From an uncultured Alphaproteobacteria bacterium (lineage in GTDB: Bacteria > Pseudomonadota > Alphaproteobacteria > CAVTAV01): a DNA stretch of 64,000 nucleotides. The notes beneath the pieces were generated by a model. The model was not told where the DNA came from. It worked only from the letters and a program-made list of their open reading frames with translations, and searched no databases. The stretch covers positions 2,825 to 66,824 of the forward strand of contig CAWGFE010000001.1 in assembly GCA_963821875.1 (NCBI GenBank). Direction: 5' to 3'. Below, piece by piece: positions 1,888 through 61,698 of the stretch. The stretch's first letter is position 1. The number at the start of each line of letters is the position of its first letter. A program made the position numbers and the translations under genes.

Positions 1888-1919
1888 CGGGATTTCCTCG
1901 TCCGGGCCGGATAACGCGG

Positions 1920-2699: not shown

Positions 2700-2833
2700 A
2701 AAGCCCTCCTGCGATGCGTTAACGGCGATTTTCCAGCGCCGGCACCTGACCCCAAACGGCCGAGATTTATTCCGTACGGATTAAGTATTCCCTAATCGGG
2801 AGCGGACGCGGGCCATCCCGGTCTCTGCCCGCT

Positions 2834-2884
2834 ACATCAACTGTTCCATGTCGACCATCATTTCCGCGGTCTGGGCGGCGGGGA
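2834..2884. repeat. Orphan copy of the last ~16 codons plus stop region of the APC permease gene; left direct repeat of the glycosylation islet
   Basis: acatcaActgttccatgtcgaccatcatttccgcggtctgggcggcgggga matches 7413-7463 at 50 of 51 positions. The one difference is a synonymous CTG/TTG change. Confidence 0.9.
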
Positions 2885-2922
2885 CAGGCCCCGCGTCGCA
2901 AAGTGACAAGCGTTTTGCGGGG

Positions 2923-3321
2923 TCAGGTCCTAAAGACGAATATTTTGCTCAGCAGGAAGAAGATCGTCGTATAGGTAGCCATGCCAAAAAGCTGCGCAAT
3001 ACCCGGCTGAACAGCCCCCGTGCGGAGCGTGACGACCACGGTGATAGCGTTTAGACTGTAGGCCACGGCGAATGCGAATAGAAAACGGCCGACGGGTTGG
3101 CCTGAAGCCTGGTCCGAGAAAGTCCAGTTCCTGTTCAGCACGAAAGAGCAAAGAAGGCCTACGGCGTAGCCTGAAGCGTTTGCTACGATCGGCGTTATGC
3201 CGAACCAATCCATGAGAGCGAAAATAACCGCGAGCCCGACGAGGGTATTAATCACACCAACAATGCCGAAGCGTACAGCCTGCTGGGCCAGTCGCCGAAC
3301 TGCCGGGTGCCGGTATATCAT
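2923..3321 (-). CDS. GtrA-family membrane protein (putative polyprenyl-phosphate-sugar flippase)
   Basis: MIYRHPAVRRLAQQAVRFGIVGVINTLVGLAVIFALMDWFG...NRNWTF is a typical GtrA-like four-TM pattern. I chose the ATG at 3321 over the GTG at 3408. Confidence 0.8.
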   Translation of the reverse strand: MIYRHPAVRRLAQQAVRFGIVGVINTLVGLAVIFALMDWFGITPIVANASGYAVGLLCSFVLNRNWTFSDQASGQPVGRFLFAFAVAYSLNAITVVVTLRTGAVQPGIAQLFGMATYTTIFFLLSKIFVFRT

Positions 3322-3493
3322 GCCTTGTATTTCGCAAGATGATGGACAACAGAGACCGTCACCGTTGAATCCGGAATGTGGGCCCTGAAGATCAAATCGG
3401 ACAGCCACGCTGGAGCAGTGATCGCCTGTATAAAAGGCGCCAGCAGACCTGTCGTCCTATCAACTTTCCCAAGAGTCTCGATGACTTTCGGAC

Positions 3494-5071
3494 TCAAGAT
3501 CCCTCTCGTCGCTTCAGCAAAATATCGTGATTGGCAACGTATAACACCTCATAGCGGTTGCCGACGTATTTCATGAGCGTCCGGAACGTCTTGGGAGCAG
3601 TCGGCGACGCTTTGAGAGGCGTGTCGATACCGTCGAGCCAGTTGCGTCCCAGGATGACGAAGACAGGCGGCTTTTCGCGAAGGTCCGTTTCTAATTGGGT
3701 GAGCCAATTTTCGTAATACGGAAAAGAGGGGGTGATCGAACCCAACGCCGGAGTATTCGTCAGCCTGATGCTCGACCGTCTTTCCGACAAGAACGGAATC
3801 TCGAAGGCGTTCGAATAAAGCACGATATAGTCACCCGGCTGGCTGCCCGCTCGGATCAGGTTGACCATCGAGCGTAGGTCTTTGGACGATGTATCACCCC
3901 AAAAAACTTCATCTATGCGTCCGGCCAAAAGGTTCTCTGCTGACGGAGCCAGGTGGGTCAGTTTCTTTGCGCAACCAGAAACGGTGATACCCAGAGCGGC
4001 AATCACCGCCGTGCCGATCAGTAGAGTGCGGCGTTTTCGCCAAATGTTAAGAAGAAAGTCGAGACAGACTGCGACAAGTAAAGTGAGAAGTGTTAAGAAT
4101 CCTCCGATGTGGTAACCGAATCCTTTATTCTGCGCCACGAAGGATATGATGATTGTTCCTGCGGCGCCTATTACAATGAGTGGCCCATAGGCGAGACCGT
4201 CACGTTTGACCCACAGAACCAGCCCGATTGATCCGAGGATGGTGAGCCAATGCCACCAACGGATGAACGCATTGAATGCGGTTGATGCCAGGCTCTGCGC
4301 AGGCGAGCCGGAGTAAGCAGACAAGGCGAATACGATCGATTTTTCATACCAGTCGCCGAGGTTTCCTTGGATGACCCCCACGGCTACGACGATACCGACG
4401 GTTGCCGAGAAGCCGGCAACGAGAAGAATTGCCCGAGTTCGTCGATTAGCGTGGCGAGGAAGGAGCGTCTGGACTGGCAGCATCTCAAGCAACAGCAAGC
4501 CCGCAAGGAAGCTCAGAAATGTGGGGCGGACAAGAACCGCCGCGGCGATCAGGACGCCCGCTATAGATGTTTGAATTTTCTCGTGAGCATAGCCTGGTGT
4601 CGCCAATGCACCGGCTGCAAGGATGATGCCTGTCGCTATTATGTCGCGTTGGCCAACCATCCATCCGCCGCCAGATACGTAGATCATCGGGTAGAGGGCA
4701 ATAAACATGAATGGTGCAGTACGAAAGCCGCTTCTCCAGATCAGGACGGCAATGGCGCCGTTAAGCATTTCCATTAAGAGAAAATCTGTCAGGCGGAATG
4801 TCCAGAAATGGACGCCAAAGAGCCAGATGCCCGCCTCATGCAGCATCATTGCGCCGGGCCAATTCATGTCGAATGAGCCGGAGTAATATGGCATGCCATG
4901 AAGGGCGAGCCAGCCTATGTAATCGAACTCTGATTGGTCCGGCGACGGGCGTACCATCATATACAACAAGCCGAGAATTGGAGCGGATACCAACCAGAAA
5001 GTCGTCAACCCGGTCTGAAGGAATTTCGCCCCGCGCCGGGACGCAATGAACGAGCCAGCCTTCGTTGTCAT
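3494..5071 (-). CDS. GT-C-fold integral membrane glycosyltransferase (ArnT/PMT/GT39-83-like)
   Basis: About 525 aa with more than 10 TM segments, an acidic first-loop motif (PSPDQSEFDYIGW) and a soluble C-terminal domain. The ATG at 5071 (MTTKAGSF) is preferred over the TTG at 5110. Confidence 0.75.
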   Translation of the reverse strand: MTTKAGSFIASRRGAKFLQTGLTTFWLVSAPILGLLYMMVRPSPDQSEFDYIGWLALHGMPYYSGSFDMNWPGAMMLHEAGIWLFGVHFWTFRLTDFLLMEMLNGAIAVLIWRSGFRTAPFMFIALYPMIYVSGGGWMVGQRDIIATGIILAAGALATPGYAHEKIQTSIAGVLIAAAVLVRPTFLSFLAGLLLLEMLPVQTLLPRHANRRTRAILLVAGFSATVGIVVAVGVIQGNLGDWYEKSIVFALSAYSGSPAQSLASTAFNAFIRWWHWLTILGSIGLVLWVKRDGLAYGPLIVIGAAGTIIISFVAQNKGFGYHIGGFLTLLTLLVAVCLDFLLNIWRKRRTLLIGTAVIAALGITVSGCAKKLTHLAPSAENLLAGRIDEVFWGDTSSKDLRSMVNLIRAGSQPGDYIVLYSNAFEIPFLSERRSSIRLTNTPALGSITPSFPYYENWLTQLETDLREKPPVFVILGRNWLDGIDTPLKASPTAPKTFRTLMKYVGNRYEVLYVANHDILLKRREGS

Positions 5072-5147
5072 GGTTGCGTCAGGCTCCCAGTGTGGGGCAG
5101 TTTGCCGCAATGCCCTTAGCCGCTCGATCGATCGGATCGTCGTTCCG

Positions 5148-6119
5148 TCATGCCAAACCTTTTGATCGCCGGTTTTCGCGCGTCAGAAAGACTGTCTGCA
5201 TCGATTGCATAGTTCGCCGGACGCCCAGCTCGAGGGACATCGGGCGCCAGTCGCGAGGCATTGATGAGGATCGAAAACTCATATCGCGGGCGTTGTGCGG
5301 GCGAGGGTCGAATTCGAGGAATAGTTTCTGCCGCAAGGTCTTTTCGACATATTGGATGAGTTCGAAAGTCGTCGTCGGACGTCCACTGGCAAGAAGCAAG
5401 ACTTGTGATATCTTTACGGGCTTCAGGACCTGCTGCGCCACGAAGCGACCGATGTCGTCCGCATGTACGTAGTCCCTGATCGTATGCATGGTGCCGAAAA
5501 TCCGGCTAACCTTGTGTCGTAAACCATTGCCGATCAACGTTGTTATGAGGCCTGCCCGCCCTGTCGGTCTGAAACCATAGACGGAGGCCGGGCGATAGAT
5601 CCGATAGACTGTCTCCTCAAGCGTCCCGCGCAGAGCGTCTTCTTGCTGAAGCTTACCCTCACCATAGGGACGCAGGGGAGCAGGAGAACTCTGGTCATCG
5701 CAATGGACGCGACCTTCGAACAAGCCACCAGCTGAACTCATCATATGGAAGCTGTGTTGCGCGGCCGGGAACCGGAGGAACAGTCGGTGGCTGATGTCGA
5801 GAATTTCTAGAAACAGTTTCGTCTCGACAGCCATTTGGTCTTGGCTACTGGAGAAACCGCTGCGCCCGGCTGCCCAGATAACATCAATAAATCGATTCGC
5901 ATCGCGGTTCGGGCCAAGCATATAGCCCGCTTCGATCTCGATTGTCTCACGCTGTACCGCACGTTCGGACGATGACGACCAATTGTAGGGAAGCCAGATC
6001 CTGCGTGCGTTCGTAAGCGATAGGAGTACTTCGCTTACTGCTCCTCCAATTAGGCCCGCGCCGAAAATCAGGGCGACGTGACCCGTTTTACCTGAGTTTT
6101 CATGCCAGCCCAGCAGCAT
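5148..6119 (-). CDS. NAD-dependent epimerase/dehydratase-family protein
   Basis: From the ATG at 6119: MLLGWHENSGKTGHVALIFGAGLIGGAV (Rossmann motif) and a YxxxK motif (PYGEGK). The start overlaps the upstream stop by 1 nt (TGATG). The 431-aa ORF-track extension overlaps the GT2 gene. Confidence 0.8.
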   Translation of the reverse strand: MLLGWHENSGKTGHVALIFGAGLIGGAVSEVLLSLTNARRIWLPYNWSSSSERAVQRETIEIEAGYMLGPNRDANRFIDVIWAAGRSGFSSSQDQMAVETKLFLEILDISHRLFLRFPAAQHSFHMMSSAGGLFEGRVHCDDQSSPAPLRPYGEGKLQQEDALRGTLEETVYRIYRPASVYGFRPTGRAGLITTLIGNGLRHKVSRIFGTMHTIRDYVHADDIGRFVAQQVLKPVKISQVLLLASGRPTTTFELIQYVEKTLRQKLFLEFDPRPHNARDMSFRSSSMPRDWRPMSLELGVRRTMQSMQTVFLTRENRRSKGLA

Positions 6120-7150
6120 CACTGTAGCTTCTCCGATAGCCAGCGCGCGGCATTCGCGTCGAGTGCGCGATCGACGGGAAAGAATGTTGGCTTGCCGTGC
6201 GCCTGGAGAACGAGTGTAGAAAGATATTGGAGGCAGATGCCCAGCATGAAGATGGACAAGCCACCAAAGAACGAAATGATCAGAACGAGGGAAGCCCATC
6301 CTTGGACGGCGATCTTCGACGGATAAAGAAGCTTCACCGCAATGAGATATGCGGATCCGAGTACGGACAAGAGCAGGACGGCGCCGCCGACCACAGCGCC
6401 GAGCCGGAGAATTTTGATGTGACTCGAAAATAGCATTCGCCATGCATGTGATAGCAATGACCTCAGTGTGTAACCACTCCGGCCAGTTCGGGTGTAGCGT
6501 TCGTCTTTAAGGTCCATCCGCACATTATCGATGCGTTGCGTGAACCATGCGAGATTGACATCGAAGTAGGTGTCGTGCGTGCAGACGCTTGATGCCGCGC
6601 GAGCGATGGTACCGCGCATGAGACGAAAGCTGTTGATATATTCGAGCTTGGGGTTGCCGGTCAGCCAGCGCATGAAGCGTTTAAAAGTCCGCGAAGTGAG
6701 ATCGCGGGTGAACGCCTTGTGAACGCCCCTCGTTGGCTGCGCATACACAACGTCGCTGCTGTTAGACAAAGCCTTGATAAGTAGGTCCGGGATCCGGGCT
6801 GGCGGGTGCTGCAGGTCTTCGTCCATGGTAACGACCCAATCACCGGAACTATGTAGGACGCCAGCGACCGTAGCCCCGTGCTGGCCAAAATTCCGCGACA
6901 GATGGAGTGCCGTCAACCAGGGCATATTGGCCGCCATCCCATCGATCACCGACGGCGATTCGTCGATCGCCGCGTCGTCGACGAGTATAAGCTCGTCCAG
7001 AGATACGGGGGCATTCTCACGCCGCCACATCTCGCGCAGTTTGGCCACGTCGTCACACAAGCGCGTAAGGTACTCCGCCCCGGAGTAGACAGGCACCACT
7101 ACGCTCACGGAGATCATCGCTGATTGGTCAGGCTCTGACGCAGCGTCCAT
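6119..7150 (-). CDS. GT2 polyprenyl-phosphate glycosyltransferase (GtrB/ArnC/DPM1-like)
   Basis: ISVSVVVPVYSGAEYL...LILVDDAAIDESP...SRNFGQHGA...TMDEDLQHPP plus two C-terminal TM helices. The start is uncertain (ATG 7150, ATG 7117 or TTG 7183). Confidence 0.85.
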   Translation of the reverse strand: MDAASEPDQSAMISVSVVVPVYSGAEYLTRLCDDVAKLREMWRRENAPVSLDELILVDDAAIDESPSVIDGMAANMPWLTALHLSRNFGQHGATVAGVLHSSGDWVVTMDEDLQHPPARIPDLLIKALSNSSDVVYAQPTRGVHKAFTRDLTSRTFKRFMRWLTGNPKLEYINSFRLMRGTIARAASSVCTHDTYFDVNLAWFTQRIDNVRMDLKDERYTRTGRSGYTLRSLLSHAWRMLFSSHIKILRLGAVVGGAVLLLSVLGSAYLIAVKLLYPSKIAVQGWASLVLIISFFGGLSIFMLGICLQYLSTLVLQAHGKPTFFPVDRALDANAARWLSEKLQ

Positions 7151-7410
7151 TTTATGCTCGGTTCCCGCCAACTCAGCCGTCAACCCGCGTCATTGCCGAC
7201 TGGCCCTAAGGTGTAATCCCGTGGATCAACAAAATGACCGCAAGACGCAACAACATTTTCGAAAGTCACTATGCCAATCTGTTCATCAGGAATGCCTATA
7301 ATACATCTTATGACTGATTGAAGTTCATTAGAAATCATGACTCTGACTTCCTCTTACTCCCATTGTCTGTGCCTTCGACAAGGTGAGCCCTGTTTCACCC
7401 TTGAGAAGGT

Positions 7411-9000
7411 TCACATCAGCTGTTCCATGTCGACCATCATTTCCGCGGTCTGGGCGGCGGGGATGGCGGAGCGGAGGGCGAGGAAGATGACGACGAGGCT
7501 CCAGAAGGCTACCGCGACGACGCCGGACCAGAAACCGAGCTCGCCATAGCCGCCGCCGATATCGCCGAGGGCGGAGAGAACCCACATGCCGCCGAACCAG
7601 GCGAACAGCCAGTCGATATTGCGCCAGCCGAAATCCTCGACAGGGTTTTTGGCGACGAAATGATAATAGACCGCGTAAAGCACGAAGCCGCCCGCGACCA
7701 GCGCGAACAGGAACGTATTCGTCGTATAGCCGGTCCAGTAGATGATCCAGTTGCTGCTGACAAAGGCGAGCGGGGCGAGGAACTCCGCGCCCTTCAGGCG
7801 GAACGGCCGGTCCAGGTCCGGCCGGTTGCGGCGCAGGACCAGCAACACGATCGGCCCCAGGCCATAGGTGAGCACCGTGATGGAAGTGATGTAGTTCACC
7901 ATCAGCTGCCAGGCCGGGAACGGCAGCAGGAACAGGACGCCCACGCCCCACATGACGAGCACCGCGAGCCAGGGCGCGCGCGCCTTGTTCAGCGAGGTGA
8001 GCCAGCGCGGGCCGGAATTCGTGTCGCCGACCGCGAAGAGGATGCGAGCCCCGCCGGTCATATACATGAGCCCGGTGCCGCCCGGCGAGATATAGGCGTC
8101 GACATAGAGCAGCGTCGCCAACCAGCCGATGCCGAGAGTCGCGGCCAGTCCGGCGAACGGGCCCGCCGCGCCGGTGAAGGTCATATGCGTCCAACCGTGC
8201 GCGAGGTCTTCGGGGCGCAGCGCCATCAGGAACGCGACCTGCAGCAGGACATAGACGAGCGCGGAAATCAGCACAGATCCGATCACGGCGATTGGAATGT
8301 GCCGTCCGGGATTGGAGCTTTCGCCGCCGAGATCGATCGCCGTGCGAAAGCCGAGAAAGCTGAACACGATGCCGGCGGCGGGCAGCGCCGTGAAGATGCC
8401 GGAGAATTTGTAGCTGTTGGGGTCCGCGTCCCAGACGTCCCAATGGGAACTCGCCGTGATCAGGACGACGATCGCCAGCAACGGCACGGCGATCTTCCAC
8501 CAGGTGACCGTCGAATTGACATGAAGCAGCTTGCGCACGGCGAGCAGATTCAAGAGCGCCAGCACGCCGAGCAGCAAGGCGCAGGTGATGAAACCCGTGG
8601 TCGTCAAAAGGTCGTTGGTGTTGGGCTGGAGGAAATAGGGCAGGTAGTTGTTGGCGTAGGTGACTATAGCCTCGGCCTCCACGGCGGGCACCGCGACATA
8701 GGCGAGAAACAGCATCCAGCCCCAGATGCGCCCCAGGCCCTGGCCATGGCTCGCATGGCTCATATGCACCAATGCGCCGCTATGCGGGAAAAGGGCGGCC
8801 AGCTCGGCGAAGCACAGGGCGATGACCATGATGATGGCGGCGCCGATGATCCAGCTCCAGACGCTCAAGGGTCCGGCGATCCGGGAAGCGTGATAGGCGC
8901 CGAACAGCCAGCCCGAGCCGATCATGCTCGTGGTGCTGGCGAATAACAGACCAATGATGCGAGCGTCACGGCTCAGCTTGCTCGGCGCGGAACCTGCCAT
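7411..9000 (-). CDS. APC-superfamily amino acid permease
   Basis: 529 aa with 12 or more TM segments: LLFASTTSMIGSGWLFGAYHA...CFAELAALFPHSGALVHM. An RBS (aggag) lies upstream of the ATG at 9000. Confidence 0.9.
   Translation of the reverse strand: MAGSAPSKLSRDARIIGLLFASTTSMIGSGWLFGAYHASRIAGPLSVWSWIIGAAIIMVIALCFAELAALFPHSGALVHMSHASHGQGLGRIWGWMLFLAYVAVPAVEAEAIVTYANNYLPYFLQPNTNDLLTTTGFITCALLLGVLALLNLLAVRKLLHVNSTVTWWKIAVPLLAIVVLITASSHWDVWDADPNSYKFSGIFTALPAAGIVFSFLGFRTAIDLGGESSNPGRHIPIAVIGSVLISALVYVLLQVAFLMALRPEDLAHGWTHMTFTGAAGPFAGLAATLGIGWLATLLYVDAYISPGGTGLMYMTGGARILFAVGDTNSGPRWLTSLNKARAPWLAVLVMWGVGVLFLLPFPAWQLMVNYITSITVLTYGLGPIVLLVLRRNRPDLDRPFRLKGAEFLAPLAFVSSNWIIYWTGYTTNTFLFALVAGGFVLYAVYYHFVAKNPVEDFGWRNIDWLFAWFGGMWVLSALGDIGGGYGELGFWSGVVAVAFWSLVVIFLALRSAIPAAQTAEMMVDMEQLM
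7413..7463. repeat. Right direct repeat, which is the authentic 3' end of the APC permease gene
   Basis: Matches 2834-2884 at 50 of 51 positions and encodes ...AAQTAEMMVDMEQLM*. Confidence 0.9.
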
Positions 9001-17243: not shown

Positions 17244-17642
17244 ATGGCGGGATCTAGCGCGGGACTTCATGAGGATCCGGAAAAACTGAAACCGGAAACG
17301 ATCGACCGGCACCGTGCCATCGTTTCGTTGATGGAAGAGTTCGAAGCGGTCGACTGGTACGCCCAGAGGGTCGACGCCACGACGGATCCGGACTTGCGCG
17401 AGATCCTCGCGCATAACCGCGACGAGGAGAAGGAACACGCAGCGATGGTCCTCGAATGGCTGCGGCGGAGCGATCCCTCGATCGACGATTACCTGAAGAC
17501 CTATCTGTTCAGCGAAGGCGCGATTACGGAACTGGAAGAGGCCGAAACGTCCGGCGGGTCCGATGGCGAATCCGGCGGCGCGCCCCGGAAGGCCGACGGG
17601 TCGCTCGGCATCGGCAGCCTTAAGGGAAGGAGCGAGGCATGA
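17244..17642 (+). CDS. Encapsulated ferritin-like cargo protein (EncFtn) with a C-terminal encapsulin targeting peptide
   Basis: EEFEAVDWYAQR...HNRDEEKEHAAMVLEWL is the EncFtn di-iron ExxH region. A Gly/Ser/Glu linker follows, then the targeting motif DGSLGIGSLKG. An RBS (aaggagag) is present, and the gene overlaps the shell gene by ATGA. Confidence 0.85.
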   Translation: MAGSSAGLHEDPEKLKPETIDRHRAIVSLMEEFEAVDWYAQRVDATTDPDLREILAHNRDEEKEHAAMVLEWLRRSDPSIDDYLKTYLFSEGAITELEEAETSGGSDGESGGAPRKADGSLGIGSLKGRSEA

Positions 17643-18469
17643 ACGATCTTTGGCGTGATTTGGCCCCGGTACCGGCTCAGGCCTGGACGGAAATCGACGA
17701 AGAAGCCACGCGGACGCTTAAGGTCTCGCTGGCGGGGCGCAAAATCGCGGATTTCACCGGCCCCTTGGGCTGGGAAGCATCGTCCGTCGGTCTCGGCCGC
17801 GCCGAGGAGCTGAAGCAGGGCCCGGGCCAGGGGGTGCGCGCGTCTCTGCGGCAGGTCCAGCCCCTGGTCGAGTTGCGCGTGCCGTTCACGCTGTCCCGGC
17901 GCGAGCTGGATGCCGTGGCGCGCGGGGCGAAGGACGCCGATCTCGCGCCGGTCACGACGGCCGCCCAGGCCATCGCCACAGCCGAGGACAACGCGATCTT
18001 TCATGGCTATGCGGCGGCCGGCATTGAAGGTATTTGCGAGGCCGCCGGCGGCAGCGCCCTGTCGATTTCGGCGAATTATGAGAACTATCCCGCTTCGGTC
18101 GCCGAAGCGCTCTCGAAGCTTCGGGCGGCCGGTGTGGACGGCCCTTATGCGATCGCGCTCGGCCCGCGATGCTTTGTCGGATTGACCGAGACCACCAAGG
18201 AAGGCTTTCCGATCATGCAGCATGTCCAGCGCCTACTGGACGGCCCGGTGATCTGGGCGCCGGCGGTGGACGGCGCGGCCGTCGTGAGTCTGCGCGGCGG
18301 CGACTTCGAGCTCATCGTCGGTCGGGATTTCTCGATCGGTTATCTGGATCACTCCGCGACGGAGATCGAGCTCTATATCGAGGAAAGCTTCACCTCCCGC
18401 GTGCTCGCCCCCGAAGCCGCCGTGCCGTTGGTCTATGGTCAGAAGAAGAAAGGCACCCGCGGCAAGTGA
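17639..18469 (+). CDS. Family-1 encapsulin shell protein (HK97 fold, linocin-M18-like)
   Basis: MNDLWRDLAPVPAQAWTEIDEEATRTLKVSLAGRKIADF...VELRVPFTLSRRELDAV...GGDFELIVGRDFSIGY. 276 aa. Confidence 0.9.
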   Translation: MNDLWRDLAPVPAQAWTEIDEEATRTLKVSLAGRKIADFTGPLGWEASSVGLGRAEELKQGPGQGVRASLRQVQPLVELRVPFTLSRRELDAVARGAKDADLAPVTTAAQAIATAEDNAIFHGYAAAGIEGICEAAGGSALSISANYENYPASVAEALSKLRAAGVDGPYAIALGPRCFVGLTETTKEGFPIMQHVQRLLDGPVIWAPAVDGAAVVSLRGGDFELIVGRDFSIGYLDHSATEIELYIEESFTSRVLAPEAAVPLVYGQKKKGTRGK

Positions 18470-34316: not shown

Positions 34317-34658
34317 CTACGCCGAATTCGCGTCGCCGTAGCGCAGCACCCGGACTTTTTCGAGTGTGACCAGACCACTGCCCATCATATTTTCGAGTTC
34401 GGGCAGGAAGGATTCGATCTTTTCCTGGCTGTCGACGATCTCGATAACGATCGGGAGATCTTCCGAGAGCCGGAGAATCTTCGCGGTGTGCAGATGGCTG
34501 GAATGGCCGAAGCCGAGCGGGCCGCGCAGAACCGTGGCGCCGGCGAGGCCGGCCGCGCGGGCTTTCAGCACGATCGCTTCATAGGCCGGCTTGCCGTCGG
34601 CCTTGTCGTCCTCGCCAACGAAGATGCGGAGAAGGACTGCGTTTTCGGGCAGTGTCAT
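34317..34658 (-). CDS. DUF190 (PII-like) protein, fluoride-associated
   Basis: LLRIFVGEDDK...GATVLRGPLGFG. It lies 12 nt downstream of crcB. Confidence 0.8.
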   Translation of the reverse strand: MTLPENAVLLRIFVGEDDKADGKPAYEAIVLKARAAGLAGATVLRGPLGFGHSSHLHTAKILRLSEDLPIVIEIVDSQEKIESFLPELENMMGSGLVTLEKVRVLRYGDANSA

Positions 34659-34670
34659 TGCTGGAGCCCC

Positions 34671-35066
34671 CTATCGATTGATCGTTACGGCGAGGCTGTG
34701 TCCCAGCCAGGCGCCGAAGATGCACAGAAGCACCGAGAGCACGACATTCGCCGCGCCCCAGAGCCATTCGCCGTCCTGCATCAGCGTCAGTGTCTGGAGG
34801 CTGAAGGACGAAAAGGTCGTGAAGCCGCCGAACACGCCGACCAGCATGAACTGGCGTGGGCCGGTGCCGAGCAGCATGCGGCCGTCGGGGCCGGTGACGG
34901 TGAAGACCACCGCGATGAGAAACGATCCGACGACGTTCACGAACATCGTGCCGAAGGGAAAGGTCTCGCCGACCCAGCGCGCCACAAGGCCCGAGCACCA
35001 ATATCGCCCAAGGCTGCCGATGGCGCCGCCGAGCGCCACCCAGAGCGGGATCACGATGCTAGACAT
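34671..35066 (-). CDS. crcB: Fluoride channel CrcB/FluC
   Basis: From the ATG at 35066: MSSIVIPLWVALGGAIGSLGRYW...FPFGTMFVNVVGSF...GFTTFSSF. Confidence 0.9.
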   Translation of the reverse strand: MSSIVIPLWVALGGAIGSLGRYWCSGLVARWVGETFPFGTMFVNVVGSFLIAVVFTVTGPDGRMLLGTGPRQFMLVGVFGGFTTFSSFSLQTLTLMQDGEWLWGAANVVLSVLLCIFGAWLGHSLAVTINR

Positions 35067-35167
35067 GACCGCGGGTTCCCGCGCGACAGCCGCGCGCACA
35101 GAGGTTTCGTCTCGAAAATGTCGGTGTCACATGCGCCTCCTGGGCCGCTTCCTCAAGCTTGTGGTTG

Positions 35168-35238
35168 TGAGGCAGGAGTCATCAGCCTGGACAAGACCTT
35201 GTCCGCGGAGGCGGTTAATGGGGGACTCCATCCCCAGT
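35168..35238 (-). promoter_or_regulatory. Fluoride riboswitch (crcB RNA motif)
   Basis: The minus strand reads GGGGAUGGAGUCCCCCAUUAACCGCC-(GGACAAG-GUC-CUUGUCC hairpin)-AGGCUGAUGACUCCUGCC. This shows the P1 stem, the conserved AAC.GCC and CUGAUG elements, and a GGAGU/ACUCC pseudoknot. It lies about 100 nt upstream of crcB. Confidence 0.8.
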
Positions 35239-35298
35239 CATTTAGAACTGCCCCGATTTTGGAGGCCAGTCAATCCTCGCGGTAGCGCACGCGCGAGG

Positions 35299-53054: not shown

Positions 53055-53573
53055 ATGTCACCCAGTGCTAGTGTGAAGAAGACGACGAAGCGTACGACCA
53101 CCAAGACGGCAGCGAAGAAGACCGCTGCGAAGAAGGCTCCGGCCAGACGCGCGAAGACGGCTGCGGCCGCGGCGAAGCCCGCGACCAAGAAAGCGCCCGC
53201 CAAGAAGACCGCTGCGAAGAAGACCGTAGCGAAGAAGGCGCCTGCCAAGAAGACGGTCGCGAAGAAGACCACGGCGCGGAAGACGGTCGCCAAGAAGCCT
53301 GCCGCCAAGAAGACGGTCGCGAAAAAGGCTCCTGCGAAAAAGACCGCTGCGAAGAAGGCACCCGCCCGTAAGACCGCCGCGAAGAAGACCACGGCGCGGA
53401 AGACGGTCGCCAAGAAGCCTGCTGCGCGTCGGACCGCTGCGAAGAAGCCTGCGGCTCGCCGGACGGCTACCGCAAAGAAGCCTGCCGTCAAGAAGGCCGC
53501 TGCGCGGAAGCCCGCTGTCCGGACCGCCGCGAAGAAAGTCACCGTCCGAAAGACCGTCGCGAAGAAGAAGTAA
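53055..53573 (+). CDS. Histone-H1-like / AlgP-like Ala-Lys-Pro-Thr repeat DNA-binding protein
   Basis: 172 aa, almost entirely KKTAAKKAPAKK-type repeats. An RBS (aaggggag) is present. Internal 44-bp perfect duplication at 53259-53302 and 53379-53422. Confidence 0.8.
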   Translation: MSPSASVKKTTKRTTTKTAAKKTAAKKAPARRAKTAAAAAKPATKKAPAKKTAAKKTVAKKAPAKKTVAKKTTARKTVAKKPAAKKTVAKKAPAKKTAAKKAPARKTAAKKTTARKTVAKKPAARRTAAKKPAARRTATAKKPAVKKAAARKPAVRTAAKKVTVRKTVAKKK

Positions 53574-55515: not shown

Positions 55516-55896
55516 CTATTTGATCCTGGGCATGTTCTGGATCTCGCTGCCGACAATGCCGAGCAGCTTGGGATCCTTCGCGACGATGCGCTGGACCGAC
55601 TGACTGATGCGTCTTTCCAACTTGGACATTTCGGCCGCGTGCTTCTGGAACAGCGTCATCTGGTGGGCCTGGTCCATGGCATCAATGTCGTTCACCATCT
55701 TCTGGATTTTGGTATTGGCTTTCGCGATCTCATGCGCCGCTTCCCTGGCGCTCGCTTCATCCTTGACGGAATCAAGCGCGTCGGCCACGTGGCTCAACTG
55801 GTCGACATAAGCCTGCCCCACATCGCTGCTCGATCCGCCGCATCCCGCGAACGTGACTGCCACCACGACGCCGACTATCGCTGCCAGCCGTTTCAT
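55516..55896 (-). CDS. Hypothetical lipoprotein
   Basis: Signal peptide plus lipobox VTFAGCG, with a helical soluble part. It lies 30 nt downstream of the decarboxylase gene. Confidence 0.65.
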   Translation of the reverse strand: MKRLAAIVGVVVAVTFAGCGGSSSDVGQAYVDQLSHVADALDSVKDEASAREAAHEIAKANTKIQKMVNDIDAMDQAHQMTLFQKHAAEMSKLERRISQSVQRIVAKDPKLLGIVGSEIQNMPRIK

Positions 55897-55926
55897 AATG
55901 CCTCCGATCTGTGAACCCCAAAGCGA

Positions 55927-57120
55927 TCATTCTGCGCTCGCGATCGTCCTTTTGTCGATGGCGGCGTCCGAAGTACGGGCGAGGTCATTGGAGAAACGCT
56001 CGGCAATCGCCTCCGCCGGGAGCGCGATGCGCGGCGGTTTGGCCGCGATCAGCGGCGCTGTGAACAGCCGGACGAAGTGCGGGCCAGGCGGCCCGGCAAA
56101 AGCCTTGGCGATCGCGCTCTCCATGCCGTCGAGAGACCCTGCCTCACGGCTGCTGCGATAGCCGCAGGCCGCCGCCACGGCGCAGAGATCGACCCCGCTG
56201 GACAGGGTCGCCTGCCCACCGGTCGATTCATGAACACCGTTGTCGACCACGACGTGCAGCATGTTGGCGGGCGCCATCGCGCCGGCGAAGGCGAGCGTGC
56301 CGAGCCGCATCAGGATCGACCCGTCGCCGTCCAGCACCACGACGGGACGGTCGGTCGTTTGGGCAACGCCGAGACCGATCGCGGCGGCGTGCCCCATAGA
56401 GCCCATCATGTAAAAATGAGCGGGAGAATCCTTCAGGTCGTAAATCTCCCGGCTCGCCAGACCCGTTGGGGCAATAATGACAGCGTCGACGGGCAAGCAT
56501 TCGAGCAGGCTCGCGAGCGCCGCGTGCCGAGCCGGCGGTGTCGCCTTGGTATCGCGCTCGATAGCGCCGACGGCGTGAACTAGCGGCGTTGGGGCCGCGG
56601 TGTCCGGGATCTGACGAAACAGCCGGGTCGGAACGAGGATCGCCTGCGATTGTCTGCCTGCTGTCACTTTCGTTGCGCATGTTTCAGCCAAGTCGTCGGC
56701 ATTTCGGGCGGCGGCGATGTGGACGCCAAAACCGCAAGCCTCGAGAAACGGACGGGTCATTCGGCCGACGAGGCGATGCTGCGGCTCGTCATGAACGCCC
56801 GGCTGACCGCGCCAGCCGACGATCAGAAGGATCGGGATCCGATAGGGCACGATCAGCGATGTCAGCGCATTGGCGAGATTGCCGAGTCCCGAATTCTGGC
56901 ACAGCACCGCCGTCGTATGGCCGCCGAGCCGGGCGCCGGCTGCAAAGCCGAGGGCCTCGCCTTCATTCGGCGCATTGGCGAACAGAAAGTCCGGATCGGC
57001 GATCGCGGCGTCGATCAAACCGGTCATCGACGAACAGGGAACGCAGGTCAGCCTGTCGGCGCCGCCGCGCTTCAGTCCGGCGAGAAAGGCGAGCGGATCG
57101 GCTCTGCCGTCGTCGCTCAC
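55927..57120 (-). CDS. ThDP-dependent phosphonopyruvate decarboxylase-family enzyme (Ppd/Fom2-like; sulfopyruvate decarboxylase is the alternative)
   Basis: CVPCSS...NEGEALGFAAGA (PYR domain) and VVVLDGDGSILMRLGTL...VVVDNGVHESTGGQ (ThDP/Mg motif). The GTG start overlaps the upstream stop (GTGA). Confidence 0.85.
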   Translation of the reverse strand: MSDDGRADPLAFLAGLKRGGADRLTCVPCSSMTGLIDAAIADPDFLFANAPNEGEALGFAAGARLGGHTTAVLCQNSGLGNLANALTSLIVPYRIPILLIVGWRGQPGVHDEPQHRLVGRMTRPFLEACGFGVHIAAARNADDLAETCATKVTAGRQSQAILVPTRLFRQIPDTAAPTPLVHAVGAIERDTKATPPARHAALASLLECLPVDAVIIAPTGLASREIYDLKDSPAHFYMMGSMGHAAAIGLGVAQTTDRPVVVLDGDGSILMRLGTLAFAGAMAPANMLHVVVDNGVHESTGGQATLSSGVDLCAVAAACGYRSSREAGSLDGMESAIAKAFAGPPGPHFVRLFTAPLIAAKPPRIALPAEAIAERFSNDLARTSDAAIDKRTIASAE

Positions 57121-58232
57121 GAGGTCACCGTTCCGGCGACGAGATCGGCTGCCCGGCGCTGGAGTTCCACGACGACCTCGCGTTTCGGCGCAATGACCGA
57201 CAAATTCGCCCGGTCGGGATTGAGCGTCATGTCCGAACAGGTCTTGAGCATGTCGGGCGTTAGATACCGCAAGACGAAATCGGCCGCGCCGCTTTCGCGC
57301 CAGAAGGCGCGAAGCACCGCGTCCGGCGGGGCATGGAAGATCCGGGTCAGATAGGCGCTGCGTCGGGGCGATATTTCCGGCAGTAGGCCGGCAACCGCCA
57401 AACCGTATAACCCCGCTGCGAAGCCATGGCGCAGGCCGAACCGGCCGGTGAGGGGGTAGGACAAGGCGTGGGCGATGCCGGTCCGGGTGATCGTGATGGC
57501 GGCGCCGGCGGCGGCGGACGCGACGGACAGGTCCGGGAGAACGGCATCTGTGACACCGCGCTCCCGGCGCAAGGCCCCGGAGATCGAGTTGAGGGCGAAG
57601 CTTGCATAGCGGTCGGACGCCTCTGTGGCGCTACGGCTCCAGATGGCTTCGAGCGCATGGGTGATGGCGTCCCACAGTGCGGCGGCGCGTATTTCGGCGC
57701 TTGCCGTGGTAAGGAGAGCCGGGTCGTAGACGGCATCGCTCGGGAACAGCGCCGGGCCGTCGAGGGAGGATTTGATCCCGCCGTTCCACAGGCTCGCGGT
57801 TGATGTGAGTTCCGATCCCGATCCGGCGGTGGTCGGGAGAAGGATCAGGGGAGCCGGGATATCGGCGCTGGTGTCCCGGTCCTCGACGTCCTCGGGGAAG
57901 GTCTTCCAAGTATTTGCGAGCCGCACCAATTTCGCGGCATCCAGCACGGACCCGGACCCGATTCCGACCGTAGGCGCGGGGCCGGGCATCCACGCATCAT
58001 CGAGCGTCGGAAGTCTGACGAGGCCGTTCGGCACGATGGTGATCGCGGTCGGCGGGGGGATATCGTCCAGGACTCCGGCCCGCGTGATGCGGTGCAGGCC
58101 GCCGGCGCTGACGACCAGGCTCCACGGGCTGGTGACGAGGCTGGCGAGGGCTTTGGCTGCGGGCCGATGGAAGTGGAGGCGGGTCTTGAGATCGCCGCCG
58201 GGGAAGAACGGAGCGTTCGGCTGGGCGGTCAT
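57117..58232 (-). CDS. Group-III iron-containing alcohol dehydrogenase (PhpC/FomC-type phosphonoacetaldehyde reductase-like)
   Basis: VGIGSGSVLDAAKL, TTAGSGSE, WDAITHALEA and GIAHALSYPL...GLRHG. Overlaps the upstream gene by ATGA. Confidence 0.85.
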   Translation of the reverse strand: MTAQPNAPFFPGGDLKTRLHFHRPAAKALASLVTSPWSLVVSAGGLHRITRAGVLDDIPPPTAITIVPNGLVRLPTLDDAWMPGPAPTVGIGSGSVLDAAKLVRLANTWKTFPEDVEDRDTSADIPAPLILLPTTAGSGSELTSTASLWNGGIKSSLDGPALFPSDAVYDPALLTTASAEIRAAALWDAITHALEAIWSRSATEASDRYASFALNSISGALRRERGVTDAVLPDLSVASAAAGAAITITRTGIAHALSYPLTGRFGLRHGFAAGLYGLAVAGLLPEISPRRSAYLTRIFHAPPDAVLRAFWRESGAADFVLRYLTPDMLKTCSDMTLNPDRANLSVIAPKREVVVELQRRAADLVAGTVTS

Positions 58233-58867
58233 CCCACTTGTCCGGAATCCCGTAGCACGATTCCCGCGATCTCGGCGGCGATCGAATCCGGATCACGCCT
58301 TGAATCGATGGTGGTCCAGTCATCGCGGGCGGCCCATTCCGTGAGGATCGTGCGGATCGCGATCTGATGGCGTATGAAACCGTCCTGTTTCATTTCCGGG
58401 TCGCAGCCGCACTCGTAGGGCGTCACGTCGCCCGGGCCCTTTCGGTCATAGGCGATCGCCGGATCGAGGTCGAAATAGAGCGTGATATCGGCCTTGGGCA
58501 GCGCCTCGATATAGCCTTCGATCATGGCGCGCGGACAACCCATGGCGAGTTCCGCCGCGGCGTGCTTCATCCAGTATCCGTCGGAGATGAAATAGTCGTG
58601 GCTTTCCTTCATGCAGCGTGTGGTGGTGAGCGCAATGCACCAGAACAGAAACAGCGCGCGTCCCGGCCCTTCCATTTCCGAGATACATATCCGCACTTCC
58701 TCGAGCCTCGAATGGATGAAGCGGCATTCTGGATGGATGGCCGGGTCGAGGATGTCCCATTTGTCGATCACCTTGACCGACTTGCCCTGTTCGCGCAGCA
58801 AATGGGCGAGCGCTTTGGCCTGGGTCGATTTTCCCGCCCCGTCTATGCCGGCAAACGCGATCAGCAT
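58229..58867 (-). CDS. dTMP-kinase-like P-loop kinase
   Basis: From the ATG at 58867: MLIAFAGIDGAGKSTQAKALAHLLREQGKSV. It overlaps the upstream gene by 7 nt (ATGCTGA). Confidence 0.8.
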   Translation of the reverse strand: MLIAFAGIDGAGKSTQAKALAHLLREQGKSVKVIDKWDILDPAIHPECRFIHSRLEEVRICISEMEGPGRALFLFWCIALTTTRCMKESHDYFISDGYWMKHAAAELAMGCPRAMIEGYIEALPKADITLYFDLDPAIAYDRKGPGDVTPYECGCDPEMKQDGFIRHQIAIRTILTEWAARDDWTTIDSRRDPDSIAAEIAGIVLRDSGQVG

Positions 58868-59685
58868 TGCGCCGCCGCCGTTTGGCCGTGGTGGCCATGG
58901 CCGGGCAGGATCCAGGTGCCGGGAGGCGGGGATGCCGTCAGCGCGCTTTCCAGAAATTCCGGGCGCCCCGCGCAGATGACCCCGTCGATCCCTTGCGCGG
59001 CGAGCCGCAGCATGACCCGCAATTTGCGCCGCATGCCGCCGGTGACGTCGGGCTTGTCGGACGGTGTCGCCGCGTCGAGCGCCCGGCGCCTGTCTCGGGC
59101 CGGAATGGCCGCGATCGTCTCCGCGCCGATCCTCACTCCCGCAACGTCGGAGAGAGCGGCGTAGCGCGACACACACAGTGTGCGGGCGACGAACAGCGGC
59201 AGCAGGTCGCTGGAGACCAGATTGGCGCGGCCATGATGAAATACGATCGCCGGCATCAACACGGGCGTAACCTCCTGTTCTAAAACGTCGAGCAGCGCCG
59301 CCGGGTCGAACCGAATACCCTTGCCCGTATCGCGGAACAACGCATCGGCGTTGAGAACCTTGCAGGGCGGGCCGGCCGTGTGCCAGATCGCCTCGAACAG
59401 CGCGGCCCATTCATGAAACACCGGAGCCGCCGCCGCCAGGCGGTCCGGCGCATCCGGCATAAATTCCGGGTGAGCCGGCGCATGACCGAAACTTCCGCCG
59501 CCGGCTTCCAGGATGACGCGCGACCTCAGGGATGGATGCAGTTCCCCAAAGGCCCGTGCGAATTTTCGGATGGCGTCTTCGTTTGGTGTCTTGAGACGGG
59601 TCTTGTCGGTGATGATCGAGCCGCCGAGCTTGGCGATGAGATAGTCGGTCTCTCGTTTGTCTGTCGCTGGCGGCGGAACTGTCAT
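58861..59685 (-). CDS. Amino-acid-kinase-fold kinase (FomA / isopentenyl-phosphate-kinase-like)
   Basis: DYLIAKLGGSIITDK...AIRKFARAFGEL...VILEAGGGSFGH...DVTGGMRRKL. Overlaps the upstream gene by ATGA. Confidence 0.8.
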   Translation of the reverse strand: MTVPPPATDKRETDYLIAKLGGSIITDKTRLKTPNEDAIRKFARAFGELHPSLRSRVILEAGGGSFGHAPAHPEFMPDAPDRLAAAAPVFHEWAALFEAIWHTAGPPCKVLNADALFRDTGKGIRFDPAALLDVLEQEVTPVLMPAIVFHHGRANLVSSDLLPLFVARTLCVSRYAALSDVAGVRIGAETIAAIPARDRRRALDAATPSDKPDVTGGMRRKLRVMLRLAAQGIDGVICAGRPEFLESALTASPPPGTWILPGHGHHGQTAAAQC

Positions 59686-60248
59686 TGCATCCGGTAGTTG
59701 ATCGAAATTACCTCGGCGGTCGGTCCGATCGACGAGAAGCTGTGCGGCACGCCCGCATCGACGTAAAAGGATCCGCCTTGCTTGATCGTGCTGGAACGCC
59801 GCTGGCCGTCCGGATCGATCCAGTCGAGGCGAACATCGCCGTCGAGAACATAGACTACTTCCTTGGCATCGTGACCCTCGTTAAGAACAATCCCTTCCTC
59901 CCGGTTGCAGTGCAAGGTCAATTTGAGCGCCATGAGTTCCGGCGCCGCCTTGGTCGTCGCGAGATGCTGGAAGGTGTAATAGGGAGCGCCCGCGCGGTCG
60001 GCCGTAATCCGGTAGCCTTCGCCCGGCGCGGCGATCTTGACGCCGCCGTCGAGATCGCGGCGGTCGGCCGCCTCCTCGCTCAGAAGCGAGCCCGGAACGA
60101 TCAGCGTGTCGGCGAGTTTTTCCAGCGCGTCCGATCCCTCGGGCAGAATGACGTTGCCGTTTTCGACCCGAAAGTCGCCGATAAGATCGCCGACCGGCAT
60201 TTTGCGCGACGTGGCGACTGTTTCCAGCAGGTTGAGATCGATCTTCAT
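59682..60248 (-). CDS. Two-domain cupin resembling (S)-2-hydroxypropylphosphonate epoxidase HppE/Fom4 (an XRE-cupin regulator is the alternative)
   Basis: The ATG at 60248 follows aggag. It has a one-His cupin motif LNEGHDAKEVVYVLDGD plus GVPHSF, and APYYTFQ and SRKMP motifs. 188 aa. It is the first gene of the coupled operon. Confidence 0.6.
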   Translation of the reverse strand: MKIDLNLLETVATSRKMPVGDLIGDFRVENGNVILPEGSDALEKLADTLIVPGSLLSEEAADRRDLDGGVKIAAPGEGYRITADRAGAPYYTFQHLATTKAAPELMALKLTLHCNREEGIVLNEGHDAKEVVYVLDGDVRLDWIDPDGQRRSSTIKQGGSFYVDAGVPHSFSSIGPTAEVISINYRMQ

Positions 60249-60285
60249 GTCTGGCTCCTGTGTTTTGCGGGACTCTATCTCATTA

Positions 60286-60311
60286 GTGTATTTGTAAAAG
60301 AAGAAATACAC
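60286..60311. promoter_or_regulatory. Perfect 8-bp inverted repeat (candidate operator) in the AT-rich region upstream of the operon
   Basis: GTGTATTT-gtaaaagaag-AAATACAC, followed by a gtata-acga-gtata direct repeat. It lies 38-63 nt upstream of the ATG at 60248. Confidence 0.3.
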
Positions 60312-60400
60312 GTATAACGAGTATATTCGCGCATGGGGAGTGTGACAAGGAGAGTCGGCTGGTCGGGGCCGCCGAAAGATCGCTGAGGTGAAAGTCTGGG

Positions 60401-61483
60401 CTAAAGCCGGCCGAAAAGGCGGGGCCAGAAATCGCCGATATCGTTATAGGAGGCCGGCGTTTCGCTGCCCGGTGGCGTGGACCATTGTTCGAGAACGTCT
60501 TTCATGGCGTCGGAAAAGTCGATGCCTATGCAGGCCGGCATGCGGCGCATGACGTAGTAGCCGCCAGCCTTCAGGTTGTGGCCTTCGACGAGCCCGATGA
60601 AGCCGTCGAGCTCTTCCTCGGTCATGAGAGGCAGGATCCGCGCGAAATCGGCGAGATACTGAAAACCCTTGCGATAGCCTTGTCCGCCTTCCCAATACAG
60701 CTTCAGAAGGGCGTGAAACGCCATCCACTCGCAGGGCGGAAGATAGATTTCCGAACTGTTCCAGACATGGGGCTTGAAACGGTCCATGATGTCCTCGGCG
60801 GAAACGCCGGCCCCGACCGAGTGGTGGATGTCGATGAGAACGGGCGTCTTGACGTGCCGGCCGCTGACCTCGGACGCGAAGGGAAGGAGTTCGCCGGCCA
60901 CTGCGAAACCATTGGCGGTATCGCCGTCGACCTCGCCCAAATCGATCATCTTGACCCAGAAGCCCAAGGCATAATGCCCGTCTTCCCGTCTCTCCCTTTC
61001 TTTGGGATCGGAGGGTACGAAGACTTGCGACTCCGCGTCGTAGTCGCCGGCCCAAAAGCCCGCCGCACGCATGGCGTCCTTGGCGCCGTCCAGGTCTTCG
61101 GGGCGAACGCAGAAATCGAGATCCGCCCCGGTCCGGTGCGCCGGATCGGCATAGGCCAGAAATCCATTTGCCGTGCCCTTGAGTGCTACGAGATCGATAT
61201 CGCGATTGGCGAAGACGTCGGCGACGTCGGCCGCAACCTCGCGGCAAAGCTGCCCCTGAATCGTCGCCGCCTTGGAAATCGCCGACAGTCGCCGGTGCGT
61301 AGGGGTCGACACCTGGTCGCCGAAACGCTCCACGAAAGTCGGGATCGTGGTCGGCGCGACATGCCAGATCGAGCCGATGTCATCGGCGACGGCCTCCGTC
61401 TGCCAGTCGGTCAGCTCGGATTCGAAGATATGCCCCGCGAGGAGTTCGCGCCACGGCAAACTCCGCCAGCAGGCCTTCGGCAT
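60401..61483 (-). CDS. Uncharacterised nucleotidyltransferase-family protein (NTP_transf_5-like, pol-beta fold)
   Basis: DLVALKGTANGFLAYADPAHRTGADLDFCVRPEDLDGAKDAMRAAGF fits the LKG...R..DlDllV...a...L...Gf pattern. Confidence 0.65.
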   Translation of the reverse strand: MPKACWRSLPWRELLAGHIFESELTDWQTEAVADDIGSIWHVAPTTIPTFVERFGDQVSTPTHRRLSAISKAATIQGQLCREVAADVADVFANRDIDLVALKGTANGFLAYADPAHRTGADLDFCVRPEDLDGAKDAMRAAGFWAGDYDAESQVFVPSDPKERERREDGHYALGFWVKMIDLGEVDGDTANGFAVAGELLPFASEVSGRHVKTPVLIDIHHSVGAGVSAEDIMDRFKPHVWNSSEIYLPPCEWMAFHALLKLYWEGGQGYRKGFQYLADFARILPLMTEEELDGFIGLVEGHNLKAGGYYVMRRMPACIGIDFSDAMKDVLEQWSTPPGSETPASYNDIGDFWPRLFGRL

Positions 61484-61698
61484 CTGCGCCGAACGCGAAA
61501 TTACGTTCCGTAACGCCCATTTGCTTCGCGATTATCTGCAATCGATATCTGCACTACAGTATTAACCTAGTTCAAAATCGAGCCCTGTAAACAGATAGCG
61601 ATCATAAGTGCTAACAAGTCTTAACAGGATGTTGGTTGACAGAAACGGGTTTCGATCGAATTTTGACAGGTCAGGCGTTTCTTTATGCGGATTTAGCG

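Follow-up and report, generated by a model that had tools for sequence, protein, structure and literature searches.

A fosfomycin-type HppE operon without a neighbouring PEP mutase gene in an alphaproteobacterial lineage

How would a bacterium make use of the late enzymes of fosfomycin biosynthesis when phosphoenolpyruvate (PEP) mutase, which would supply their phosphonopyruvate, is not encoded beside them? This question is raised by a 64,000-nt stretch of DNA (hereafter the window) from contig CAWGFE010000001.1 (assembly GCA_963821875.1) of an uncultured Alphaproteobacteria bacterium. On the minus strand of the window, at 55927-60248, lies a cassette of five genes encoding a homologue of the epoxidase HppE, two kinases, an iron-dependent alcohol dehydrogenase (Fe-ADH) and a phosphonopyruvate decarboxylase (Ppd). 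The reading we favour, to which we give about an even chance, is that these genes are the distal hppE-fomA-fomB'-fomC-fom2 part of a fosfomycin operon built on Streptomyces logic, functional and chromosomally fixed in an alphaproteobacterial lineage. The PEP mutase gene (pepM) would lie elsewhere in the genome, and the cluster would therefore be a split one.

The cassette corresponds to the end of a complete fosfomycin-type operon

The five genes of the cassette are as follows.

59682-60248, minus strand: hppE, 188 amino acids (aa), with a Psf4-type N-domain and a cupin domain
58861-59685, minus strand: fomA-like kinase of the amino-acid-kinase (AAK) fold, PF00696
58229-58867, minus strand: P-loop kinase of the dTMP-kinase fold in the fomB position, Thymidylate_kin/DTMP_kinase
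57117-58232, minus strand: group-III Fe-ADH, likely a phosphonoacetaldehyde reductase of the FomC/PhpC type, PF00465 and PF25137
55927-57120, minus strand: phosphonopyruvate decarboxylase of the Fom2/Ppd type with fused alpha and beta halves, TIGR03297

The initial annotation had described five minus-strand genes chained by four stop/start overlaps. All five open reading frames (ORFs) are present, and each overlap could be read directly: ATGA at 59685-59682 between hppE and the fomA-like gene, ATGCTGA at 58867-58861 between the two kinase genes, ATGA at 58232-58229 between the genes for the P-loop kinase and the Fe-ADH, and GTGA at 57120-57117 between the Fe-ADH and decarboxylase genes, the latter starting with GTG. 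Its identification of all five products was likewise borne out, by Pfam and NCBIfam profiles and by matches to solved structures. The cupin ORF extends to a GTG at 60311, but translation probably starts at the ATG at 60248: this codon has an AGGAG ribosome-binding site before it and yields a protein that matches homologues of 187-189 aa.

We found hppE genes in three kinds of context: psf-type loci, a complete operon of Streptomyces logic (L022, JGI Ga0070738_10001687), and the alphaproteobacterial form present in the window. L022 encodes, in order, a 539-aa protein with B12-binding and Radical_SAM domains, a 639-aa protein with HD, CTP_transf_like and PEP_mutase domains, HppE, the AAK kinase, the P-loop kinase, the Fe-ADH and Ppd. 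The last five of these have the same order in the window and are 46% (HppE), 41% (AAK kinase), 51% (P-loop kinase), 41% (Fe-ADH) and 43% (Ppd) identical to their window counterparts. L022 differs from the window in having the two extra upstream genes (the B12/radical-SAM protein and the HD-cytidylyltransferase-PEP-mutase fusion), in lacking the PF14907 nucleotidyltransferase gene that lies upstream of the window cassette (its product is hereafter NTP5), in its G+C content (56.5% versus ~63%), and in the conjugation genes beside it. It has no DUF402 FomD, and its HD domain is fused to the Fom1-like protein.

Several further features of L022 (467-2706 and 6431-19528) were observed. The N-terminal HD domain of its PEP mutase is PhnZ-like, and the operon adjoins TrbI and VirB11-like conjugation genes. 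Downstream of it lie genes for a P450, an SDR and a 618-aa protein weakly matching a poly(A)-polymerase-like palm; this last ORF was considered as a relative of NTP5 and rejected (hhalign probability 0.3%).

Compared with the Streptomyces fom cluster, the window has the same enzyme set, namely Fom2 decarboxylation, FomC reduction, Fom4/HppE epoxidation and double phosphorylation from the FomA/FomB positions, to which L022 adds the Fom3-like (B12/radical-SAM) and Fom1-like (cytidylyltransferase-PEP-mutase fusion) genes. The window departs from that cluster in its Gram-negative, alphaproteobacterial host, in the PF14907 gene upstream, and in the Psf4-type N-domain of its HppE.

The psf-type loci (L007, L010, L014 from Pseudomonas fluorescens PS833, and L023) encode an HMGL-like synthase, a 244-aa protein of unknown function, HppE, a NAD_binding_2 reductase and an FAH-type enzyme, and a PEP mutase was seen in L007 and L014. 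The window HppE is closest to Psf4 (E=1e-29) and 42-45% identical to the HppEs of these loci. Unlike the psf cluster, however, the window has no PEP mutase, Psf2 (HMGL-like), Psf3 (NAD_binding_2) or FAH-type gene, and it has Ppd and Fe-ADH. In L007 (Logan SRR31358457_28) the genes for an AAK kinase and a dTMP-kinase-fold kinase come directly after hppE, collinear with the window. The psf cluster of L007 (13890-17885) is flanked by genes for a condensation-domain protein, two PP-binding proteins and a glycosyltransferase, and these flanks hint that fosfomycin might undergo conjugation there.

The cassette had been thought to fit neither of the known fosfomycin routes. That view has to be given up, as its five genes are collinear with the last five of L022; because of this collinearity we take the cassette to be the five genes at the distal end of a Fom-type operon and not a third architecture. 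As judged from gene content and order, it is a 5'-truncated or split Fom-type cluster, and it combines a Psf4-type HppE/kinase module with Streptomyces-type early steps. No paper describing this arrangement was found in a literature search.

If the cluster is split, phosphonopyruvate would be supplied by a PEP mutase whose gene lies in another part of the genome. Ppd would convert it to phosphonoacetaldehyde, which the Fe-ADH would turn into 2-hydroxyethylphosphonate (2-HEP). C-methylation of 2-HEP by an enzyme encoded outside the window would give (S)-2-hydroxypropylphosphonate ((S)-2-HPP), and HppE would close (S)-2-HPP to the epoxide. The two kinases would phosphorylate the phosphonate twice, to the mono- and then the diphosphate, for self-protection and/or activation, and NTP5 possibly transfers the activated phosphonate.

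The cupin retains the residues of HppE

The window cupin belongs to the Cupin_2 family, and its best match among solved structures was P. syringae Psf4/HppE (5u55, E=1e-29), which covered residues 8-185 of 188. S. wedmorensis HppE (1zz6) matched at E=8e-15 and aligned over the cupin domain only (residues 63-185), while MPnS matched at E=8e-11; the N-terminal domain is of the Psf4 type. A Foldseek search with the predicted model of the cupin ranked Psf4 first, followed by HppE and then HEPD/MPnS. The template-modelling (TM) score was just 0.36, which we attribute to the modest quality of the model (predicted local distance difference test score, pLDDT, 69).

The residue matches initially proposed for the cupin domain were seen in a computed alignment, at R85, Y90/Y91, N123, H126, E130, H169 and F171. 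Across 15 alphaproteobacterial and seven other HppEs, the iron triad H126/E130/H169 is kept with the sole exception of P0017, a psf-type sequence with Arg at the H126 position, and K16, R85, Y90, Y91, N123 and F171 are invariant. The 2-His-1-Glu triad of S. wedmorensis HppE is H138/E142/H180, and the phosphonate- and substrate-binding residues of HppE are Lys23, Arg97, Tyr102/103/105, Asn135 and Phe182. At the position of Tyr105 (S. wedmorensis numbering), the closest subclade to the window has Phe and the remaining members have Tyr. The N-domain Lys match proposed initially (SRKMP vs QVKMD) lies outside the part over which S. wedmorensis HppE aligns, although S14-R15-K16 is invariant among the Gram-negative HppEs. 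Relative to the seven other HppEs, the lineage-specific substitutions are two conservative ones, V11 and V180, and thus nothing points to an altered HppE substrate. These alignments show the window cupin to be a true homologue of the HppE epoxidase. An XRE-cupin regulator was considered and rejected, PuuR scoring 15.7 bits against E=1e-29 for Psf4.

These residues also bear on whether HppE might act on 2-HEP itself. HEPD and MPnS belong to the same cupin superfamily as the window HppE, and an upstream supply of 2-HEP by Ppd and Fe-ADH is common to both; they are, however, bicupins of ~450 aa, whereas the window protein, with 188 aa, is a far poorer match to them (8e-11 versus 1e-29 for Psf4). 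A route without methylation would lead to a new product: pepM would again lie elsewhere, HppE would act directly on 2-HEP to give, for example, 1,2-epoxyethylphosphonate or an oxidised product, and this would be pyrophosphorylated and then passed to an acceptor by the PF14907 enzyme. Such a route is consistent with the kinship of HppE to the 2-HEP-using HEPD and MPnS and with the finding of no methyltransferase for an unactivated carbon in or near the operon, and ligation by two kinases and a nucleotidyltransferase has been shown for fosfazinomycin and proposed for fosfomycin (FomU) (PMC13622209). Yet the HppE pocket is essentially unchanged from that of fosfomycin-making HppEs, and the nearest complete relative, L022, encodes a methyltransferase. 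We consider the unmethylated route distinctly unlikely.

HppE relatives are scarce. An indexed search of 5.8 billion proteins returned 17, and 23 of 1.84 billion cluster representatives matched at E<=1e-30, with HEPD/MPnS-type proteins of ~450 aa ranking lower. Among 185,579 species genomes a pattern search, of a kind that would miss the Streptomyces HppE, found two hppE loci, one in an alphaproteobacterial metagenome-assembled genome and one in P. fluorescens PS833. No plasmid-borne hppE was found by tblastn of 72,556 plasmids. Because HppE-type proteins are so rare, each new context in which one occurs is informative.

Two kinases follow HppE

The AAK kinase found its best solved structure in FomA (3d40, E=5.5e-18), with isopentenyl phosphate kinases at 5e-10. 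Among NCBIfam models, IPPK_Arch scored 77.8 bits and fomA 61.5 bits, both under their own cut-offs, that of the fomA equivalog being 550 bits. These scores suggest a distant relative of Streptomyces FomA and not an equivalog. An AAK kinase likewise follows hppE in L022 (fom-type, 41% identity) and in L007 (psf-type, 32%). An isopentenyl phosphate kinase in a mevalonate context was considered and set aside, as the neighbourhood gives it no support, although the IPK and FomA scores in NCBIfam are close.

The matches of the second kinase to Thymidylate_kin/DTMP_kinase cover the P-loop only. It is 51% identical to the gene product in the same position in L022 and 39% to that in L007, and from its place after fomA and its P-loop kinase fold we regard it as a putative counterpart of FomB (fomB').

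The decarboxylase and the reductase favour a phosphonate over a sulfonate

The decarboxylase scored 325.1 bits with the phosphonopyruvate decarboxylase model TIGR03297, above the cut-off of 312.5. TPP_enzyme_N and TPP_enzyme_C are both present and fused, and the best solved structures were the putative Ppd subunits of 9iz3. For the Fe-ADH, the best NCBIfam model was TIGR03405 (phosphonate Fe-ADH), matched from residue 88 with 126.9 bits against a cut-off of 423.7; the Fe-ADH of L022 is similarly under this cut-off, at 151 bits.

The initial annotation had also raised a sulfonate analogue, in which a sulfopyruvate decarboxylase and a sulfoacetaldehyde reductase would give isethionate, to be acted on by the cupin and the kinases. 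The two halves of the decarboxylase do match the alpha and beta models of sulfopyruvate decarboxylase, and the Fe-ADH weakly matches SarD. However, both sulfopyruvate matches are under their cut-offs (TIGR03845, 85.5 versus 147.95 bits; TIGR03846, 145.2 versus 221.5 bits) while the Ppd model is over its own, and Ppd subunits are the best structural matches. Furthermore, the decarboxylase is 43% identical to the Ppd of the pepM-containing L022 operon, each cassette gene is orthologous to a gene of that operon, and the other genes include homologues of HppE and FomA, which are phosphonate-specific families. Given these results, we hold a sulfonate pathway to be highly improbable.

The operon is conserved, selected and probably regulated

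Ten related loci (L006, L009, L012, L013, L016, L017, L019, L021, L031 and L032) have, as far as their contigs reach, a common arrangement: genes for a methyltransferase, a threonine-aldolase-like protein and the PF14907 protein, then hppE-kinase-kinase-FeADH-Ppd, then genes for an MFS transporter and FadB. All five cassette genes are present in the loci that reach past the cassette (L006, L009, L012, L013 and L017); L016, L019, L021, L031 and L032 end within it. The HppEs of the ten loci are 70-98% identical to that of the window, and an NTP5 protein with 99% identity is labelled at NCBI as coming from an alphaproteobacterial metagenome-assembled genome. The window has the following features next to its cassette.

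60401-61520, minus strand: PF14907 (NTP_transf_5) nucleotidyltransferase, NTP5, PF14907 E=1e-20
60306-60348, minus strand: promoter-like site TTGTCA-17-TATACT plus a palindrome, 10/12 matches in a promoter scan
55516-55896, minus strand: lipoprotein-like ORF of 126 aa, a variable accessory gene with no family match

A lipoprotein gene had been noted to trail the operon. The ORF is there, and it occurs in L009 (100% identical) and L012 (45%), but it is not a conserved member, since L006 and L013 lack it and have the MFS gene straight after Ppd. The MFS transporter gene, also noted beside the operon, does adjoin it; it is a conserved chromosomal neighbour whose 82-84% identity exceeds the conservation of the cassette.

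Between the window and L017, the ratio of nonsynonymous to synonymous substitutions (dN/dS) was 0.27 for the AAK kinase, 0.22 for the P-loop kinase, 0.24 for Fe-ADH and 0.28 for Ppd, and HppE was the most conserved of the five, at 0.145 (dS ~0.9-1.4). The flanking methyltransferase had a comparable value (0.25 versus L013). Upstream of hppE, the palindrome ATACTCG-N5-CGTGTAT (60324-60306 in the window; ATACTCG-N5-CG(A/T)GTAT across the loci) overlaps the -10 box of the promoter-like site and probably serves as the operator for a repressor of the hppE operon. The promoter-like site, the palindrome and the ribosome-binding site are near-invariant in seven alphaproteobacterial loci with a dS of ~1 in their coding sequences. 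A TetR gene lies ~2.4 kb upstream of the NTP5 gene in L009.

The dN/dS values of 0.15-0.28, with the conservation of the promoter, palindrome and ribosome-binding site, indicate a functional, regulated operon and no pseudogene array. A decaying, non-functional pseudo-operon would fit the missing first genes of the pathway and a 1-nt frameshift in the NTP5 gene of the window. However, the cassette ORFs are intact across relatives that are only 56-75% identical, the dN/dS values indicate selection, and the translational coupling is conserved along with the promoter and ribosome-binding site. The apparent breaks in L012 and L013 fall among split flanking genes, and a suspected decay of Fe-ADH in L006 was dismissed as a run of Ns with no deletion. 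We find a pseudo-operon hardly credible.

A nucleotidyltransferase accompanies the kinases

In all alphaproteobacterial loci long enough to include it, the gene for NTP5, which was not part of the initial annotation, lies directly upstream of the cassette, and across the lineage it co-varies with those of the two kinases. We found 12 NTP5 homologues, and all those with sufficient flanking sequence on their contigs have the cassette or its kinases next to them. The motif G103-T104 and D121-x-D123 is invariant, and the predicted model (pLDDT 82) has a Pol-beta nucleotidyltransferase fold that weakly resembles MenT toxins, ANT(2'')-Ia and LnuA. In the window the gene has one extra A at 61445-61446 (minus strand), reading GCGCGAACTCC where L009 and L001 have GCGCG-ACTCC. 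This insertion, which could be an artefact of sequencing or a genuine frameshift, breaks the frame 25 codons after the ancestral ATG (61520-61518), but a 360-aa ORF can still be read from an in-frame ATG at 61483.

The most distant homologue (46% identity) is encoded in L029 (Logan SRR22388191_1229612, 1400-4956), where the gene order is methyltransferase-NTP5-FomA-like-FomB-like-FeADH, NTP5 directly abuts the kinases, and hppE is absent. Because L029 keeps these genes without hppE, the kinases and the reductase have a use that is independent of the epoxidase, and the nucleotidyltransferase with the two kinases is the most persistent unit.

A PEP-mutase neighbourhood flanked by thymidylate kinase and PF14907 was recorded by Li and Horsman (PMC8942020). 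In fosfazinomycin biosynthesis, according to a bioRxiv preprint of September 2026, two kinases turn a phosphonate into a triphosphate-like diphosphate that the nucleotidyltransferase FzmU ligates to a nucleophile; an FzmU homologue, FomU, is encoded beside the Streptomyces fosfomycin cluster, and the authors suggest that FomA and FomB may ready fosfomycin for conjugation (PMC13622209). As in the FzmU/FomU-type module, two kinases and a nucleotidyltransferase are encoded together with phosphonate genes in the window, and by analogy the locus fits the logic of phosphonate ligation by two kinases and a nucleotidyltransferase. As with FzmF/FzmK/FzmU, two kinases stand beside an enzyme of the nucleotidyltransferase superfamily, whereas FzmF is an ATP-grasp enzyme and the window kinase has the AAK fold, and the window locus has no RRE or precursor peptide.

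The early-pathway genes are absent from the window

The reported absence of pepM, fom3, fomD and psf2 from the 64 kb stands. When the window was searched by tblastn with two PEP mutases and the B12/radical-SAM protein, the best E-values were at chance level (0.07 and 0.99), with no remnants; with the L007 psf proteins (PEP mutase, HMGL-like Psf2, Psf3-type reductase and FAH-type enzyme), E exceeded 1 throughout, and none of the Pseudomonas-type Psf1, Psf2 and Psf3 was found in the window. Pfam scans of 50 window ORFs gave no PEP_mutase/ICL, Radical_SAM, B12-binding, HMGL-like or CTP_transf_like match. The Streptomyces-type set of Fom1, Fom3 and FomD has no equivalents in the 64 kb, and PEP mutase was found neither in the window nor in the flanks of the ten related loci. 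Apart from the upstream PF14907 gene, the only other nucleotidyltransferase gene in the window is a MobA-like one ~10 kb away.

Several observations count against a split fosfomycin cluster. There is no PEP mutase, B12/radical-SAM protein or cytidylyltransferase within 55 kb on one side of the cassette (in the window) or within ~10 kb beyond NTP5 (in L009), and pepM and ppd are usually neighbours. None of 30 matches to the PEP-mutase domain of L022 lay on the alphaproteobacterial contigs that carry the cassette (2,416,758, 505,726, 305,763 and 32,089 bp); this negative is weak evidence because the search scored only 8000 candidates, those sharing most words, so that a divergent pepM could escape. 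The retention of nucleotidyltransferase, kinases and Fe-ADH without hppE in L029 also belongs here. The two best PEP-mutase-domain matches were considered as the lineage's pepM and rejected, as they lie in unrelated clusters (L026/L027 and L028).

These observations could instead reflect an orphan remnant kept for the modification of phosphonates, in which pepM and fom3 have been lost and selection acts mainly on the nucleotidyltransferase and the two kinases. Such a remnant would serve as a fosfomycin-resistance module, by FomA/FomB phosphorylation and perhaps a nucleotidyl-type transfer, or would activate scavenged phosphonates, with Ppd, Fe-ADH and HppE using imported or salvaged substrates or being lost. 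The gene set of L029 looks like stepwise erosion, NTP5 homologues were found only beside these kinases, the NTP5 model is weakly like the antibiotic nucleotidyltransferases ANT(2'')-Ia and LnuA, and no pepM was found near any member. Against loss, HppE is the most conserved protein of the cassette and its catalytic residues are all intact, while Ppd and Fe-ADH are constrained like the kinases, a pattern difficult to account for if no phosphonopyruvate were supplied. We consider an orphan remnant possible but rather unlikely. What the lineage carries is thus a split pathway or else a remnant that has been re-purposed, and the split cluster is a live option.

Other features of the window

Downstream of a fluoride riboswitch (RF01734, 55.7 bits) at 35166-35244 on the minus strand lie a CrcB-like gene (34671-35099) and a small ORF (34317-34658, minus strand) that is DUF190-like by eye; together (34317-35244) the three resemble a typical fluoride-response unit. 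An encapsulin shell gene (Linocin_M18, E=5e-93) lies within 17244-18469 on the plus strand, and the 132-aa ORF before it may encode a cargo. The stretch at 2000-8000 has a lower G+C content (0.55-0.58 versus ~0.62 elsewhere) and contains genes for a family-2 glycosyltransferase and an epimerase-like protein as well as ORFs that match no family; possibly this is a surface-polysaccharide island gained by transfer. Finally, a 172-aa ORF rich in Lys and Ala (AKK/TAAKK repeats; 53055-53573, plus strand) resembles histone-H1-like proteins and is mirrored by spurious ORFs on the opposite strand.

Implications for phosphonate biosynthesis

Genome mining for phosphonates is keyed on pepM, and a conserved, selected phosphonate operon without a nearby pepM is invisible to it. 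Together, the contexts compared above show a Psf4-type HppE with two kinases as a portable module, joined to a Pseudomonas front end in L007 and to a Streptomyces front end in L022 and the window. In this way the locus links the two known fosfomycin routes and bears on the origin of both pathways. That NTP5 occurs steadily with FomA/FomB-type kinases, even where HppE is lacking, gives independent genomic support for double phosphorylation as activation for ligation, beyond resistance. A further reading, which we judge decidedly improbable, is that the lineage has no PEP mutase at all and that the nucleotidyltransferase-HppE-kinase-kinase-reductase-decarboxylase unit stands alone. It would draw precursors at the level of phosphonopyruvate or phosphonoacetaldehyde from environmental phosphonoalanine or 2-aminoethylphosphonate (2-AEP) by salvage, and make from them a triphosphate-like phosphonyl donor, which the PF14907 enzyme would transfer to an acceptor. 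If true, the unit would represent the first phosphonyl-transfer system of the FomU type from beyond the actinomycetes, and one not coupled to C-P bond synthesis.

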